Of a DNA stretch of 49,851 bases, positions 7,473 to 32,730 are shown one piece after another. The notes under the pieces were generated by a model that saw nothing but the letters and a program-made list of their open reading frames with translations, had not been told where the DNA came from and did not search any database. The stretch covers positions 1-49,851 of the IMG/VR virus record IMGVR_UViG_3300025875_000041, one strand, 5' to 3'. Source of the stretch: a virus (lineage: Duplodnaviria > Caudoviricetes). How positions within the stretch are numbered: position 1 is the first letter of the stretch; each line of letters starts with the position of its first letter. A program made the translations under genes and the position numbers.

Positions 7473-8138
7473 ATGCCCAACTTTGCAGGGCTCGCCGCGA
7501 AGAAGTCCGAGCTGATCCGCAAGGCGCTCGGCATGTCGCTGTTCCTCACAGAGGACCAGACGACGGCCAGCATCATCACCAACCTCACCGACCCGGCCAC
7601 TGGCGCCCTGCTGCCCCTGCCGACGGGCGGCGGGTACGTCGACTGTGGCTGGTTCACCGACGAGGGCCTGCGGTTCACGCGCGCCGTCGAGCAGGACGAG
7701 GTGACCTCCGCCGGCTCGAGCACGCCGACCCGCACCGACATCACGTCCGACACCGACACCCTGCAGGTCGACCTGCAGGAGACGAACCGGATGTCGATCG
7801 CGCTCGGCACGGGTGCGGCGAAGTCCGGCCTGGTCCTCACCACCGGCTCGAAGGAGCTGAAGCTCGACAAGCCGACGACCTCGGCGCCTCGCCGCTACCG
7901 CGGCCTCGCGCTCGCAGTCGATGGCCCGCCGGAGGCGGAGATCTACTTCGGCGAATGGTTCCCGCGTCTCGCGGTCACCGACTACGCCGACAGGGCGTTC
8001 GCGAAGGGCGCGGAGTACCGGATTGGCGTCACGTTCCGTGGCGAGGTCGACAGCACCCTCGGCACCGCGAAGCGCTCCTTCTGGGGCGGCCCGGGCTGGC
8101 AGAACCTGCTCGACGAGATGGGTTTCCCGACCACCTAA
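7473..8138 (+). CDS. Major tail (tube) protein
   Basis: 221 aa; GWFTDEG, P-RTDI, LQETN motifs; position. Confidence 0.85.
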   Translation: MPNFAGLAAKKSELIRKALGMSLFLTEDQTTASIITNLTDPATGALLPLPTGGGYVDCGWFTDEGLRFTRAVEQDEVTSAGSSTPTRTDITSDTDTLQVDLQETNRMSIALGTGAAKSGLVLTTGSKELKLDKPTTSAPRRYRGLALAVDGPPEAEIYFGEWFPRLAVTDYADRAFAKGAEYRIGVTFRGEVDSTLGTAKRSFWGGPGWQNLLDEMGFPTT

Positions 8139-8143
8139 CGGTT

Positions 8144-8187
8144 GTCCGGCGGCGACCACCCAGGGGTGGCCTGGTCGCCGTCCGGAC
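8144..8187 (+). terminator. GC-rich stem-loop just after the major tail gene
   Basis: GTCCGGCGGCGACCA pairs with TGGTCGCCGTCCGGAC with one bulge; no U-tract, so may be a stability or pause element. Confidence 0.5.
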
Positions 8188-8227
8188 TCCACCGGCCTAC
8201 CCCGCACCAGCAGCAGAGGAGCAGATC

Positions 8228-8395
8228 GTGGCGAAGAGCAAGGCAGAGGGCTTCGGCGTGTTCAAGAAGGACGACCAGCAGGTCGTCGCCTGGAGCATCG
8301 ACGAGGCCGTGCGCTACCGGTTCGACGGCTGGGAGGAAGTCGCCCCGGCGCTCCCAGAGAACCAGCCCGAGGCCGACGCAGACGCGTCCGCCTGA
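8228..8395 (+). CDS. Small hypothetical tail-region protein
   Basis: GAGGAG RBS then GTG 8228; 55 aa. Confidence 0.65.
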   Translation: MAKSKAEGFGVFKKDDQQVVAWSIDEAVRYRFDGWEEVAPALPENQPEADADASA

Positions 8396-24288: not shown

Positions 24289-24342
24289 GCACCAAAGGTA
24301 GCAGGTGTGCATGCACCGCGCTAGAGTTGGTGCATGCACACC
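24280..24342. promoter_or_regulatory. Divergent leaderless promoters with three 14-bp operator-like repeats
   Basis: GGTGTGCATGCACC at 24280-24293 and 24304-24317, inverted copy at 24329-24342; TAGAGT (24322-27, +) and TACCTT (24295-300, -) each followed by TGGTGC-ATG. Confidence 0.75.
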
Positions 24343-24834
24343 GGAGAAGAGTGGCGAGCGGTCGTCGGGTACGAGGGGCTGTACGAGGTCAGTGACCAAG
24401 GGCGGGTCCGGAGTTTCGTCTCGGGCCGCCTACGTAAGCCCCAGCCGCAGCACCACGGCCACCTGAAGGTGATCCTCTGTGACAGCGGGCGCCGCCGTGG
24501 TTTCCACGTCCACACCCTCGTGCTGACGGCGTTCGTGGGCCCCAAGCCACTCGACATGGAGTGCCGCCACCTGTTCGGCGACCCCGCCGACAACCGCCTC
24601 ACGCACCTGGCGTGGGGGACGCCGTCCGAGAACAAGTACGACCAGGTTCGACACGGCACCGACCACCACGCCTCGAAGATCGAGTGCGACTCCGGGCACC
24701 CCTTCGACGACCTCAACACCTACGTCTACCGAACCGCGAAGGGCGGCGAGGCTCGCGGCTGCCGGGAGTGCCGCAGAGAGTCCGTCCGTAGGTACCGCGC
24801 CAGCAAGCGCGCTCAGCGAGAGGAAGCCGCATGA
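24334..24834 (+). CDS. NUMOD4-HNH homing endonuclease
   Basis: EEWRAVVGYEGLYEVSDQGRVRS (NUMOD4); HTLVLTAF..CRH..DNR..L-WGT-SEN; C-terminal Cys cluster. Confidence 0.9.
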   Translation: MHTGEEWRAVVGYEGLYEVSDQGRVRSFVSGRLRKPQPQHHGHLKVILCDSGRRRGFHVHTLVLTAFVGPKPLDMECRHLFGDPADNRLTHLAWGTPSENKYDQVRHGTDHHASKIECDSGHPFDDLNTYVYRTAKGGEARGCRECRRESVRRYRASKRAQREEAA

Positions 24835-26147
24835 TCCTGACCGCGAGTCACATCCAAGCCGCGCTGAAAGCAGCAGGCGCAGGCTCCGGCCTCGTCATGC
24901 CAGCCGACAAGATCGCGGACGCCTTCAACGACGCGATCAGCAAGCACGGCGATGGGCTGTTCACCACCGTCAACACGTACGCCGCGCTCGTCTCCGAATG
25001 CATGATGGAGTCCGCCTACTTCCGGACCACGCAGGAGTACGCCAGCACCGGCGCCTACCAGCCCTACCGAGGGCGCACGTTCATCCAGATCACCTGGAAG
25101 GACAACTACTCCGCCTTCGGCAAGTGGTGCAAGTCGGTCGGACTGGTCGACGACCTCGACTACTTCGTGAAGAACCCGACGAAGCTCGCCGACCTGAAGT
25201 GGGCCGCGCTCGGCGGCGTCTGGTACTTCACCAAGAAGATGTTCAGCGGGAAGCCGCTCACCGCCTACGCCGACAGCAGCCTCCAGGTCGGACGCGCCGT
25301 GAACATGGGCAACCCCTTCAGCAAGAACACGCCTAACGGCCAGAAGGCCCGGGACGACGCCTACCGCGCCGTCGTCAAGGCGCTCACCGCAGACCCACCG
25401 ACACCCACTCCGGAGGACTCCGACGTGCCCGTGAACTTCCGAGGTGGCAAGACCTGCACCTGCGTCGCCACCAGCCTGCCTCTGGTCGAGAAGGACATGA
25501 TCAGGCGCGGGCTCATCAAGCAGAGCATCGACTGCTACCAGTTCGGCTACCGCGACGACGTCTCCGCCAGCGCAGGCACGCACGCCGGCGGCGGGAACAC
25601 CGACGTCGCCCAGTTCTCCGACGCTCAGATCGAGGTGTGGCGCCTGTGGGGCTGGACCATCCAGCACCGCACCCGTGCCCAGGGCTTCGACATGGACCAC
25701 GGACACGGTTGGCCGCTGGGCTGCACCCACCTGTCCTCTGGCGGCCGCGCACAGGCCGCGCAGTGGGCGACCCGCCAGAACGGGCTCGTCAGCAAGGGAC
25801 GCGTCGCCGGCCGCTGGCCGATCGACGACTGGAAGACCGCCATGAAGAAGCGCCTCGCGCAGATCGCCGAGGACGCCAAGGAGAAGGAGCTCGAGTTGCC
25901 CACCACCGCAGAGGTCACCACGGCCGTCATCAAGGCCATGAAGTCCGACACCGACCTGCTCGAGAAGATCGGCGAGGCCGCGGCCAACGCCGACGTCGTC
26001 CCGAACGAGTTCACGGCGAACCCGACCAACGAGTTCGTCGCCACCAAGACGGCGCTCGTCTACCTGTCACGGCAGAACAAGGCGCTCGCCAAGCAGCTGG
26101 ACGCGCTGATCGCCCGGTTTCCCGACAGCACCCCTCCCGCCGTCTGA
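24831..26147 (+). CDS. Endolysin (GH19-like plus putative M15-like Zn peptidase plus C-terminal domain)
   Basis: ES..F..T-EY, YRGRTFIQITWKDNY (GH19); SAGTHAGGG-TD ... HGH. Confidence 0.85.
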   Translation: MILTASHIQAALKAAGAGSGLVMPADKIADAFNDAISKHGDGLFTTVNTYAALVSECMMESAYFRTTQEYASTGAYQPYRGRTFIQITWKDNYSAFGKWCKSVGLVDDLDYFVKNPTKLADLKWAALGGVWYFTKKMFSGKPLTAYADSSLQVGRAVNMGNPFSKNTPNGQKARDDAYRAVVKALTADPPTPTPEDSDVPVNFRGGKTCTCVATSLPLVEKDMIRRGLIKQSIDCYQFGYRDDVSASAGTHAGGGNTDVAQFSDAQIEVWRLWGWTIQHRTRAQGFDMDHGHGWPLGCTHLSSGGRAQAAQWATRQNGLVSKGRVAGRWPIDDWKTAMKKRLAQIAEDAKEKELELPTTAEVTTAVIKAMKSDTDLLEKIGEAAANADVVPNEFTANPTNEFVATKTALVYLSRQNKALAKQLDALIARFPDSTPPAV

Positions 26148-26151
26148 GCCG

Positions 26152-26862
26152 CTGACGGTCACCGCGTTCCAGTTCAACGCGCGGTGGCCGGGCTTCTCCA
26201 GCACACCGAAGTCGCCGTCGTGGGCGACGCGGGGCCCAGGCCTCGTGCTCGAGGCGGAAGAGTCTGGCGCGTCGGTGCTCATCATCCAGGAGATGGGCGC
26301 CGACCAGGCTCCCGGCTTCTTCGCCGCGATGGGCCCGGACTGGCACTACAGCCGCGCCGGGCTGAACGTCGTCGCCTGGGACACCCGCCAGTGGACATGG
26401 GCGTCGAGCGACCCGACGAACCTGTCCTCGTTTGGGCAGATGCAGCGGACGCTCTTGGTGGTCACGCTGCGGCACGCGAGCGGGCGGCTCGAGCGGTTCG
26501 CCAGCAGCCACCTCGCCGCAGCAGCGTCGGACCTCACCGCTGCGCGGGCGATCGTGGCAAGGGCTACGCAGGCCGCTGAGGTCGCAGCAGCCCTCGCCTC
26601 GTCGTCGGTACCCACCCTGCTCGGCGCGGACTGGAACAGCCGCGCAGCCACCGACAGCGGGACCTCAGCACCCCGCACCATCCTCGGCGCGCTCGGCTGG
26701 ACGTTTGACACCACGCCGCTCGCCAACGACGCCAAGCACGGCATCGACGGCACCGCCAGCAACTACGGCATCACCATCACCAGCTCGGTCGTCGTCGACC
26801 TCGCCGGACTCAGCGACCACGACGGCCGCCTGGTCGTCGCCACCACCAAGGAGACCCCGTGA
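26152..26862 (+). CDS. EEP-family phosphoesterase; start uncertain (first standard start 26245)
   Basis: Same frame gives LTVTAFQFNAR, IIQE, SSHL, GADWN, IDG, SDH. Confidence 0.72.
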   Translation: MTVTAFQFNARWPGFSSTPKSPSWATRGPGLVLEAEESGASVLIIQEMGADQAPGFFAAMGPDWHYSRAGLNVVAWDTRQWTWASSDPTNLSSFGQMQRTLLVVTLRHASGRLERFASSHLAAAASDLTAARAIVARATQAAEVAAALASSSVPTLLGADWNSRAATDSGTSAPRTILGALGWTFDTTPLANDAKHGIDGTASNYGITITSSVVVDLAGLSDHDGRLVVATTKETP

Positions 26863-27455
26863 CCCCACTCCTGATCGCCCTCGCGATCTTCGCGTTCACC
26901 CTGCCGCTGCCGCTCATCCTGCAGCTGCTCATCGCCGCGGTGCTTCCGCTCCTCGTCGGCCTGGTGACCAACCGCGTCACCAGCTCGGCGAAGAAGGCGA
27001 TCCTGCTGCTCGTCCTGAGCATCGCGGCCGCCGGCCTGAACGACCTGCTGACCTCCGTCAAGGCCGACCAGTCGTTCGACGCCGGACTCTGGCTGCTCGG
27101 CGCGGTGGCCACCTTCCTGACCAGCGGCGCCTTTCACCTCATCCTGTGGAAGCCGACCGGAGTCGCCGCAGCCGCGCAAGACGCCATCCCCGCCACCCAG
27201 CCGTCCGGCCAGGTCCTCGAGGCTGACCCGGCGAGCGAGATCCCGGGCACGCTCGAGCAGGGCCGCATCATCCCGCAGAGCCAGAACGATCAGGACGTGG
27301 CCGACGCGATGGCCGACGTGTTGAAGTCGCAGCACCCGGACACCTTCGACGTGCACACCGAGAACGGCGTGACCTACGACGGGAAGGGCAACCCGCTCAA
27401 CCCGCGCGACCTCGACGGCGACGGCCGCGACGACACCAACGGCCAGTTCGTCTAG
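26859..27455 (+). CDS. Holin
   Basis: AAGGAG RBS; VLPLLVGLVT..KAILL motif; 3-4 TM segments; downstream of endolysin. Confidence 0.75.
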   Translation: MTPLLIALAIFAFTLPLPLILQLLIAAVLPLLVGLVTNRVTSSAKKAILLLVLSIAAAGLNDLLTSVKADQSFDAGLWLLGAVATFLTSGAFHLILWKPTGVAAAAQDAIPATQPSGQVLEADPASEIPGTLEQGRIIPQSQNDQDVADAMADVLKSQHPDTFDVHTENGVTYDGKGNPLNPRDLDGDGRDDTNGQFV

Positions 27456-27521
27456 CGGTCCGAGCCGGACCTCCCGGACCCGGGTCGGGAGCTGTAGCCC
27501 GCAGCACTCAGCACGACGCAT

Positions 27522-27554
27522 CAGCGCCCTCCGCCATCACGGCGGAGGGCGCTG
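27522..27554. terminator. Terminator between convergent operons
   Basis: Perfect 14-bp stem CAGCGCCCTCCGCC / GGCGGAGGGCGCTG with 5-nt loop, followed by TTCT. Confidence 0.8.
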
Positions 27555-27562
27555 TTCTGCGT

Positions 27563-29117: not shown

Positions 29118-29226
29118 CCTAGTCAGGAGCAAGAACCTGCCTGCTTGCAAAGCAGGTGCGCTACCAATTGCGCCATGGCCCCGCGTCGTTCATCTGGCCT
29201 AGTCAGAGGGCATTTCCCCTAGTCAG
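29118..29226 (+). repeat. Three CCTAGTCAG direct repeats flanking the tRNA fragment (candidate integrase arm sites)
   Basis: Exact copies at 29118-29126, 29198-29206, 29218-29226; degenerate copies near 29008 and 29100. Confidence 0.65.
29140..29182 (-). other. 5' half of tRNA-Ala(UGC); probable attP common core
   Basis: Minus strand GGGGCCATGGCGCAATTGGTAGCGCACCTGCTTTGCAAGCAGG gives the acceptor 5' strand, D arm and anticodon arm; no canonical 3' half follows. Confidence 0.8.
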
Positions 29227-31671: not shown

Positions 31672-32730
31672 CTAGGCCGCATCCTCGTCGTCCTGCGCAC
31701 GCTTGCGCTGCTGCTCCATGCGGTCGGCCACCAGGTCGAGCTGGGTGTCCCAGAGGTTGCCGTACCGGTCGAGTGTCATCGCCGCCGAAGCGTGCCCGAG
31801 CATCCGCTGCACGACCTTCACGTCCGCCCCCGATGCGATGGCCAACGACGCCGCGGTGTGGCGCAACTCGTGCGGGTGCATGTCGCCCAGCCCAGCAGCG
31901 AGAGCCGCCGGCTTGAACGCTCGAGCCCGCCAGGAGTGCGGGTCCAGTCGGTGACCCTTCTCGCCCACGAACAACGGACCTGGCTTCTCCGGCAGCCGCG
32001 CGAGCACCGACGCCTGGACGGGGACCTCTCGTTCCTTCGAGCCCTTCGTCGGACCCAGCTCGCGGCCCTCAGACGACACCGACCACGAGTGCCGCACCCG
32101 GATCCGCTTCCGCACCCGGTCCACATCGTCCTGGCCCAGCCCGAGCGCCTCACCCAGCCGCATGCCCGTCGTGCCCAGCAGCAGCACCAGAGGCCCGTGA
32201 GGACCAGACGCTGCCACCAGGCGCTCCAGCTCGGCCCACGACAGGAACCGCATCGAGGTGCGGGTCAGCCGGGGGAGCGCGACACCCTCGGTCGGGTCCC
32301 CCGTGAGCAGCCGGTCCGCCATCGCCAGCCGGTAGCAGCGGCGCAGCATCATCAGTCCGCGGTGACGCACCGAAGCCGACAAGCCGGGCCTCGCGACCCA
32401 TGCGCGAATGTCCGACGGCTTCAGCGTCGTCGCCAGCCGATCCCCGAACGCAGCGACTACGTGTTCTGCGTCGTAGCGATACGCATCCTGGGTCTTCGGA
32501 CGCAGCCCACCGATGCCCGCCAGGTAAGACTCCGTCATCTCCGCGACCGTCAGCTGCGGACGCTGGTCGGCGATCCGTGGGTCGAGACGTCGCTTGGCAT
32601 CGAACGTCTCCGCAGCGGTCTTGTTGGCAAACCGCCGCTTGCGCTGCTGTCCACCCTCGCGCCAGCGGACCTCGTATCGCTGACCAGGGCCCGTCCTGGC
32701 GCCCCGGCCCCAACGGTCGTGGACGCTCAC
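31672..32730 (-). CDS. int: Tyrosine integrase
   Basis: TGMRLGE (R), HELRH, LGH, TLDRY catalytic motifs; N-terminal arm-binding-like region. Confidence 0.95.
   Translation of the reverse strand: MSVHDRWGRGARTGPGQRYEVRWREGGQQRKRRFANKTAAETFDAKRRLDPRIADQRPQLTVAEMTESYLAGIGGLRPKTQDAYRYDAEHVVAAFGDRLATTLKPSDIRAWVARPGLSASVRHRGLMMLRRCYRLAMADRLLTGDPTEGVALPRLTRTSMRFLSWAELERLVAASGPHGPLVLLLGTTGMRLGEALGLGQDDVDRVRKRIRVRHSWSVSSEGRELGPTKGSKEREVPVQASVLARLPEKPGPLFVGEKGHRLDPHSWRARAFKPAALAAGLGDMHPHELRHTAASLAIASGADVKVVQRMLGHASAAMTLDRYGNLWDTQLDLVADRMEQQRKRAQDDEDAA

Follow-up and report, generated by a model that had tools for sequence, protein, structure and literature searches.

We propose that the endolysin gene of a temperate phage probably carries a programmed +1 frameshift, either at TTT_CCC_N or five codons downstream at CCC_G, by which a 676-aa lysin–EEP protein would be made beside the 438-aa lysin of standard decoding. 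Such an endolysin–EEP fusion had been put forward in the sequence-only reading of this locus, and it is now supported by a diverged relative that keeps both TTT CCC and the frame offset, by the Phe-Pro ends of related lysins, by start-less EEP records in the databases and by in-frame fusions of the same two parts.

The window, by which we mean the whole stretch of DNA analysed (49,851 bases, ~69% GC), contains the complete virus record and is that of a temperate siphovirus-like phage, as seen from its terminase, portal, capsid, tail and tape measure genes and its tyrosine integrase. GC content and lysin matches to Mycobacterium and Gordonia phages point to an actinobacterial host. The lysis region runs from an HNH gene (24334-24834) through the endolysin and the EEP open reading frame to the holin (Table 1), an arrangement in which, as in actinobacteriophage lysin A, a peptidoglycan hydrolase identified by PHROG and tblastn adjoins the holin. 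Neither the N-terminal glycosidase domain nor the second lysin domain has a Pfam match. Zn peptidases of the M15/hedgehog fold combine that fold with an H-x6-D...H zinc motif; the second domain is likely such a peptidase, judging from its residues, and Foldseek returned weak hedgehog and DD-peptidase rows for it (E about 2). The last predicted helix of the lysin ends at about residue 428 in the AlphaFold model, directly before Phe-Pro.

Table 1. Features of the lysin–EEP region, in window coordinates
Feature	Position	Strand	Remarks
Endolysin, 438 aa, short product by standard decoding	24831..26147	+	matches PHROG endolysin families (E 2e-30 to 3e-18) and, by tblastn, mycobacteriophage lysin A
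Putative GH19/chitinase-like glycosidase domain at the N-terminus	24831..25385	+	phrog_317, residues 44-180; phrog_14712, chitinase
Second lysin domain	25425..25865	+	invariant His and Asp seven apart; near-invariant later His pair
C-terminal helical domain	25884..26114	+	helix at 207-230 of the stretch modelled with AlphaFold; 14 lysins share an ELPT...LDAL motif
Candidate +1 site CGG TTT CCC G	26115..26124	+	TTT_C and CCC_G can both shift to +1 pairing without changing the amino acid
Pro-rich +1-frame linker	26119..26151	+	overlaps the lysin tail and TGA (26145-26147)
Second conserved candidate site CCT CCC G	26133..26139	+	kept in L001; PPAA/PPAV-like tail ends most clade lysins
EEP-fold phosphoesterase domain, 236 aa	26152..26862	+	N9, E47, H120, D160, N162, D199, D222, H223
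Predicted mRNA hairpin, starting just after CTG	26156..26190	+	11 pairs kept in both lineages, 1 compensatory change (two sequences)
Holin	26859..27455	+	phrog_8269, E 2e-20; overlaps the EEP stop (GTGA)

The frame geometry holds as originally described. Between the TGA at 26107-26109 and that at 26860-26862 the +1 frame is free of stops (from 26110 onwards), with the GTG at 26245 as its first ATG, GTG or TTG, and the EEP motif LTVTAFQFNAR (26152-26184) lies upstream of this codon. The 3' end of the lysin gene reads CGG TTT CCC GAC AGC ACC CCT CCC GCC GTC TGA, and a slip at TTT would lead through the Pro-rich linker into the complete EEP domain. The EEP frame thus overlaps the lysin in +1 and has no usable canonical start, as GTG 26245 falls within the folded domain. 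High third-position GC leaves the lysin frame and appears in the +1 frame between two 60-nt bins, those that begin at 26080 and 26140. In a comparison of the window with the relative L001, pN/pS in the +1 frame was 0.36 over 26152-26244 (25 of 31 residues identical) and 0.41 in the remainder of the EEP domain, with 1.5 and 3.4 in the two other frames; this purifying selection argues that the 31 codons ahead of the GTG are translated. The databases annotate the window's EEP as a 205-aa form. Because strand 1, helix 1 and the conserved Asn are all missing from that form, the GTG-start and pseudogene readings fail, and initiation at GTG 26245 is effectively rejected by its position inside the domain and by selection on the upstream codons.

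A sequence indel had been one of two early alternatives, the other being a CTG start at 26152, and the indel too can be effectively set aside. In run X1, which may be the source sample, one Logan contig of depth 22 covers 25823-26843 with neither a difference nor a gap, and a contig of run X2 is identical over 26131-26346, stopping short of TTT; both are assembled contigs, not raw reads, and contigs drop rare variants. The relative was found in two assemblies, as L001 and L002, which are identical over 5700 nt and represent one lineage; DNA therefore covers two lineages, the window and L001/L002, and the other lysin and EEP records of the clade are protein sequences. An indel artefact is unlikely because this diverged relative keeps GCC CGG TTT CCC and the same +1 offset: its lysin C-terminal domain is identical to the window's at 34 of 82 positions, and its linker, in the lysin/EEP overlap, has 9 additional nt that preserve the frame. 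On the 3' side of the shift site L001 reads CCT CCC GCC..TGA GCC GCT GAC. The relative shares window positions 24849-26853 as a single block of 76.6% identity (comparison with G002) and has a different holin, and the window's terminase, portal, capsid, major tail and tape measure genes have no match in it. Lysin and EEP thus travel as one module between phages with different holins. A papain-like peptidase gene (phrog_16701) lies at L001 848-1687 (+), ~0.9 kb upstream of the L001 lysin.

Re-pairing in +1 with the same residue is possible at three zero-frame codons in both lineages, TTT 26118, CCC 26121 and CCC 26136, the P-site contexts being TTT_C, CCC_G/A and a later CCC_G. Slips at either of the first two codons would give an identical peptide and the 676-aa product, and a slip at the third, within CCT CCC G, a different junction peptide. 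TTT is rare, as had been stated: in 15 late genes selected by hand, 10 of the 161 Phe codons are TTT, and in the lysin 1 of 16 is, the one at 26118, which is also the sole in-frame TTT-CC among the window's GC3-filtered open reading frames. When the 19 Phe pairs aligned between the window and L001 were compared, 16 were TTC/TTC, 2 TTT/TTC and 1 TTT/TTT; the last is the shift site, and the window's two other TTT codons in these pairs are TTC in L001. The site also lies in a 13-nt stretch without a difference from L001, just exceeding the other identical runs of 9-12 nt in the 3' part of the gene. The rare TTT kept in both lineages suggests, for these two DNA lineages, conservation beyond the needs of the protein. 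Among possible stimulators at the shift site, no adjacent stop and no strong SD-like element upstream were found (-4.2 and -3.0 kcal/mol). The predicted hairpin lies at a variable distance of 35-44 nt from the site, and its pairing is seen in two sequences, which give no statistical support.

The catalytic set of the EEP superfamily comprises Asn, Glu, His, Asp-x-Asn, Asp and Asp-His. The AlphaFold model of the domain from 26152 (pLDDT 94) has the four-layer alpha/beta sandwich of this superfamily (PF03372), with strand 1 formed by residues 2-9; Foldseek matched it to TDP2, nocturnin and BVU_0621 (TM 0.71-0.78, E 6e-15 to 1e-12), and a PDB profile search also placed it in the EEP superfamily. 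Pfam gave no match at E<=0.1 for the window's EEP protein, and several of its homologues match PF03372, some above the cut-off. In an alignment of 99 rows, with gaps counted as misses, E47 and H120 were each conserved in 97, D160 in 95, N162, D222 and H223 in 88 and D199 in 82; N9 was identified in the alignment by eye. The annotated starts of related records are informative as well. All 12 stand-alone EEP records at ≥60% identity, a set that includes the window's own, that of L001 and one fragment, start inside the domain without strand 1, at five different positions; two fragments without the Glu column were set aside. Among the distant stand-alone records, strand 1 is present in 36 of 37. 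The product is thus invisible in the databases because gene callers shorten every close member of the clade.

The C-terminal domain of the lysin is found in 14 of 51 lysin homologues, which differ in their N-terminal domains, and 13 of these 14 end in Phe-Pro plus 4-15 residues, P0024 being the one without it. The PPA tail is missing from P0019. Phe-Pro occurs within the last 20 residues in the same proportion of the clade (13/14), in none of the 37 other lysin matches and in 2 of 85 EEP matches; several other columns of the C-terminal domain are equally conserved.

In-frame fusions were looked for in relatives, as had been suggested, and were found. P0015 joins a lysin N-terminal domain 66% identical to the window's in frame to an EEP domain 54% identical, and in a FastTree phylogeny of 45 domains from the better-scoring matches, rooted at the midpoint, it groups with 11 start-less EEP sequences at a support of 1.00; in this tree fused and free forms are interleaved. 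Of 88 EEP profile matches, 47 are at least 350 aa long, and a domain scan of 31 long EEP-bearing proteins detected GH25, Amidase_2, M15, LysM or PG-binding domains in 17 at E<=0.001. The EEP domain is usually preceded by a Pro-rich linker in these fusions, and the catalytic domains with which it is paired are of at least four kinds (GH25, amidase, M15 and GH19-like).

P0062-P0065 and P0067 are lysins with the peptidase-like domain; the C-terminal halves of P0062-P0065 end in EEP-like DxN and SDH/GDH motifs, and these four are possibly a more distant EEP fusion family.

The strongest competitor, which we nevertheless regard as unlikely, is that the EEP domain is a separate 236-aa protein initiated at CTG 26152 or ACG 26155, coupled to the lysin stop 4 nt upstream and kept scarce by a weak start. 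Both codons are conserved in L001, the domain folds completely from 26152, and many distant homologues are stand-alone proteins with Met directly before strand 1. Other late genes of the window restart at a GTG 3 nt past a stop, one of them with an equally weak SD (18448, -2.2 kcal/mol), and the start-less records would fit a CTG start too, because gene callers ignore CTG. However, CTG commonly encodes Leu in genes of such high GC, and the one at 26152 has almost no SD (-1.5 kcal/mol against a background quartile of -1.7, weaker than about three-quarters of random sites); the predicted hairpin would cover +5 to +39, starting 2 nt behind it, and a canonical start at this position occurs in 0 of the 12 close EEP records. 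A restart would also leave the rare TTT, the Phe-Pro ends, the frame-keeping indel and the conserved +1-frame Pro codons upstream unexplained. Frameshifting and restarting could operate together.

That the fusion is reached differently, by ribosomes shifting -2 or hopping or by RNA polymerase slipping on the short T/C runs, appears quite improbable: -2 re-pairing with the same amino acid is available at CCT 26133 in both lineages, but not at TTT or the first CCC, and the runs of 3-4 nt fall below the T5C5-type slippage cassettes described in PMC5009743. Least credible of all is an artefact of assembly, an indel that recently inactivated an in-frame fusion, or a short protein from GTG 26245. 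The close in-frame fusion P0015 and the annotated 205-aa form would suit this reading, but the gap-free contig over the junction, the identical offset in a relative from two assemblies, the low pN/pS on both sides of the GTG and the five scattered starts that remove strand 1 and the conserved Asn all contradict it.

Under the +1 frameshift model, most ribosomes would end at the TGA at 26145, releasing the 438-aa endolysin, and a fraction would slip +1 at TTT_CCC_G (26118-26124) to make the 676-aa lysin–linker–EEP protein. The slip may occur by peptidyl-tRNA-Phe moving from UUU to UUC, or by tRNA-Pro moving from CCC to CCG, with the same product. The fusion would bring the predicted phosphoesterase to the cell wall, where cleavage of a phosphate link in a wall polymer may give the glycosidase and peptidase domains access. 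The locus probably arose either from an in-frame fusion or from a recombination landing out of frame, and we propose that the out-of-frame arrangement was kept because it delivers mostly plain lysin and little of the accessory enzyme.

As for the substrate, the context makes a phosphodiester or a phosphomonoester likeliest, located within a wall glycopolymer or where such a polymer is linked to peptidoglycan: fusions of the domain to wall hydrolases and to wall-binding domains recur, and nothing at this position signals a DNA role. Alternatively, the domain may act as a nuclease or phospholipase. The Streptomyces phage Yosif encodes a structurally similar 232-aa EEP, apparently ahead of the terminase and outside the lysis cassette (the gene was matched by length). 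BT3783 (a mannosyl-6-phosphatase, PDB 4c1r/3mpr), BVU_0621 (3g6s), TDP2 and nocturnin share the EEP fold and catalytic set with the window's domain, at 14-16% identity, a level at which no substrate is transferable. BT3783 is an EEP-fold phosphatase acting on phosphorylated glycans (PMC4978465).

Both halves of the TTT CCC site have precedents, UUU_Ynn being described as especially +1-prone in bacteria and CCC_N as a utilised +1 site in Listeria phage PSA (PMC5009743). The capsid and tail-shaft genes of the Listeria phages PSA, A118 and A500 resemble the window's locus in shifting +1 on CCC near the 3' end of a late gene, where a C-terminal domain is added and short and long products result (PMC5009743). 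They are structural genes with Ig-like extensions and stimulation by a stop codon or pseudoknot (PMC5009743), whereas the window has a lysis gene, an enzyme as the extension, a tandem TTT_CCC and no identified stimulator. A +1 fusion of overlapping genes, as in the window, has also been proposed at UUU for Yersinia YopN-TyeA (PMC5009743, PMC3789692); there, the site is disputed and tyeA possesses a start and an SD of its own, whereas the window's downstream domain lacks a canonical start. UUU site assignments can fail, because in Y. pseudotuberculosis the hybrid persists after mutation of the proposed yopN UUU site (PMC3789692).

Among endolysins, Ms6 LysA, CTP1L and LysP7951 likewise draw two isoforms in unequal amounts from one lysin locus, but these arise from in-frame internal starts and have a common C-terminus (PMC9430671); the window's isoforms would have a common N-terminus, the minor one gaining a catalytic domain by recoding. 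The available part of PMC9430671, on two-isoform endolysins, makes no mention of frameshifts, and those of PMC10885494, PMC13313380 and PMC10652937 hold nothing relevant on lysins. GeneMark-predicted, untested frameshifts have been listed in genes near the endolysins and holins of Streptomyces phages (PMC9671017). No report of a +1 frameshift in a lysin gene was found in the literature searched. Utilised +1 frameshifts in phages are, to our knowledge, few and come from structural genes.

The sequence-only reading had placed the EEP protein in the slot that lysin B often occupies in mycobacteriophages. Lysin B is a cutinase-like mycolylarabinogalactan esterase of the alpha/beta-hydrolase fold with a catalytic Ser, encoded by a separate gene with its own start. 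The analogy stands for position and role, that of an accessory envelope enzyme beside lysin A and holin, but fold and chemistry differ; an identification of the protein as lysin B was rejected, as all listed fold matches are EEP and no PHROG match was obtained.

The recurrent pairing of lysin and EEP, together with the interleaving of fused and free forms, points to an unstudied accessory lysis activity on wall phosphate linkages. A broader proposal, which we offer tentatively and at appreciably lower confidence than the frameshift itself, is that in this actinobacterial phage clade the conserved tandem TTT_CCC shift sets the dose of an EEP phosphodiesterase by which phosphate-linked polymers of the wall (chains of a teichoic-acid-like kind, or their linkage unit) are released from peptidoglycan, the minor fusion being carried on the helical C-terminal domain of the lysin, possibly in an oligomer of short lysins, and serving as a functional lysin B counterpart for hosts without mycolic acids. 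If this is true, it would define a so far undescribed class of lysis enzyme and an endolysin isoform made by recoding. Such an activity would be useful for understanding how lysins pass glycopolymers, and the locus would offer a compact +1 cassette without an adjacent stop codon.

Three further features of the window were observed. In the region 8120-8394 (+), the major tail gene ends G GGT TTC CCG ACC ACC TAA, a -1-type heptamer, and shares the 11-mer GGTTTCCCGAC with the lysin site in a different frame. The -1 frame behind it is open to about 8394, and G001 and G002 contain no homologue; the heptamer may be a coincidence, because near 8228 the downstream open reading frame carries a GTG of its own behind a good SD. 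A GC-rich inverted repeat 3' of the holin (27500-27560, GCGCCCTCCGCC...GGCGGAGGGCGC), seen by eye and absent from the repeat scan, is likely a terminator between convergent genes. Finally, 58 nt from the 5' portion of a tRNA (Ala, anticodon TGC) lie at 29125-29182 (-), ~2.5 kb from the tyrosine integrase (31672-32730, -); they are likely an attP core, the 5' rather than the 3' half being unusual.
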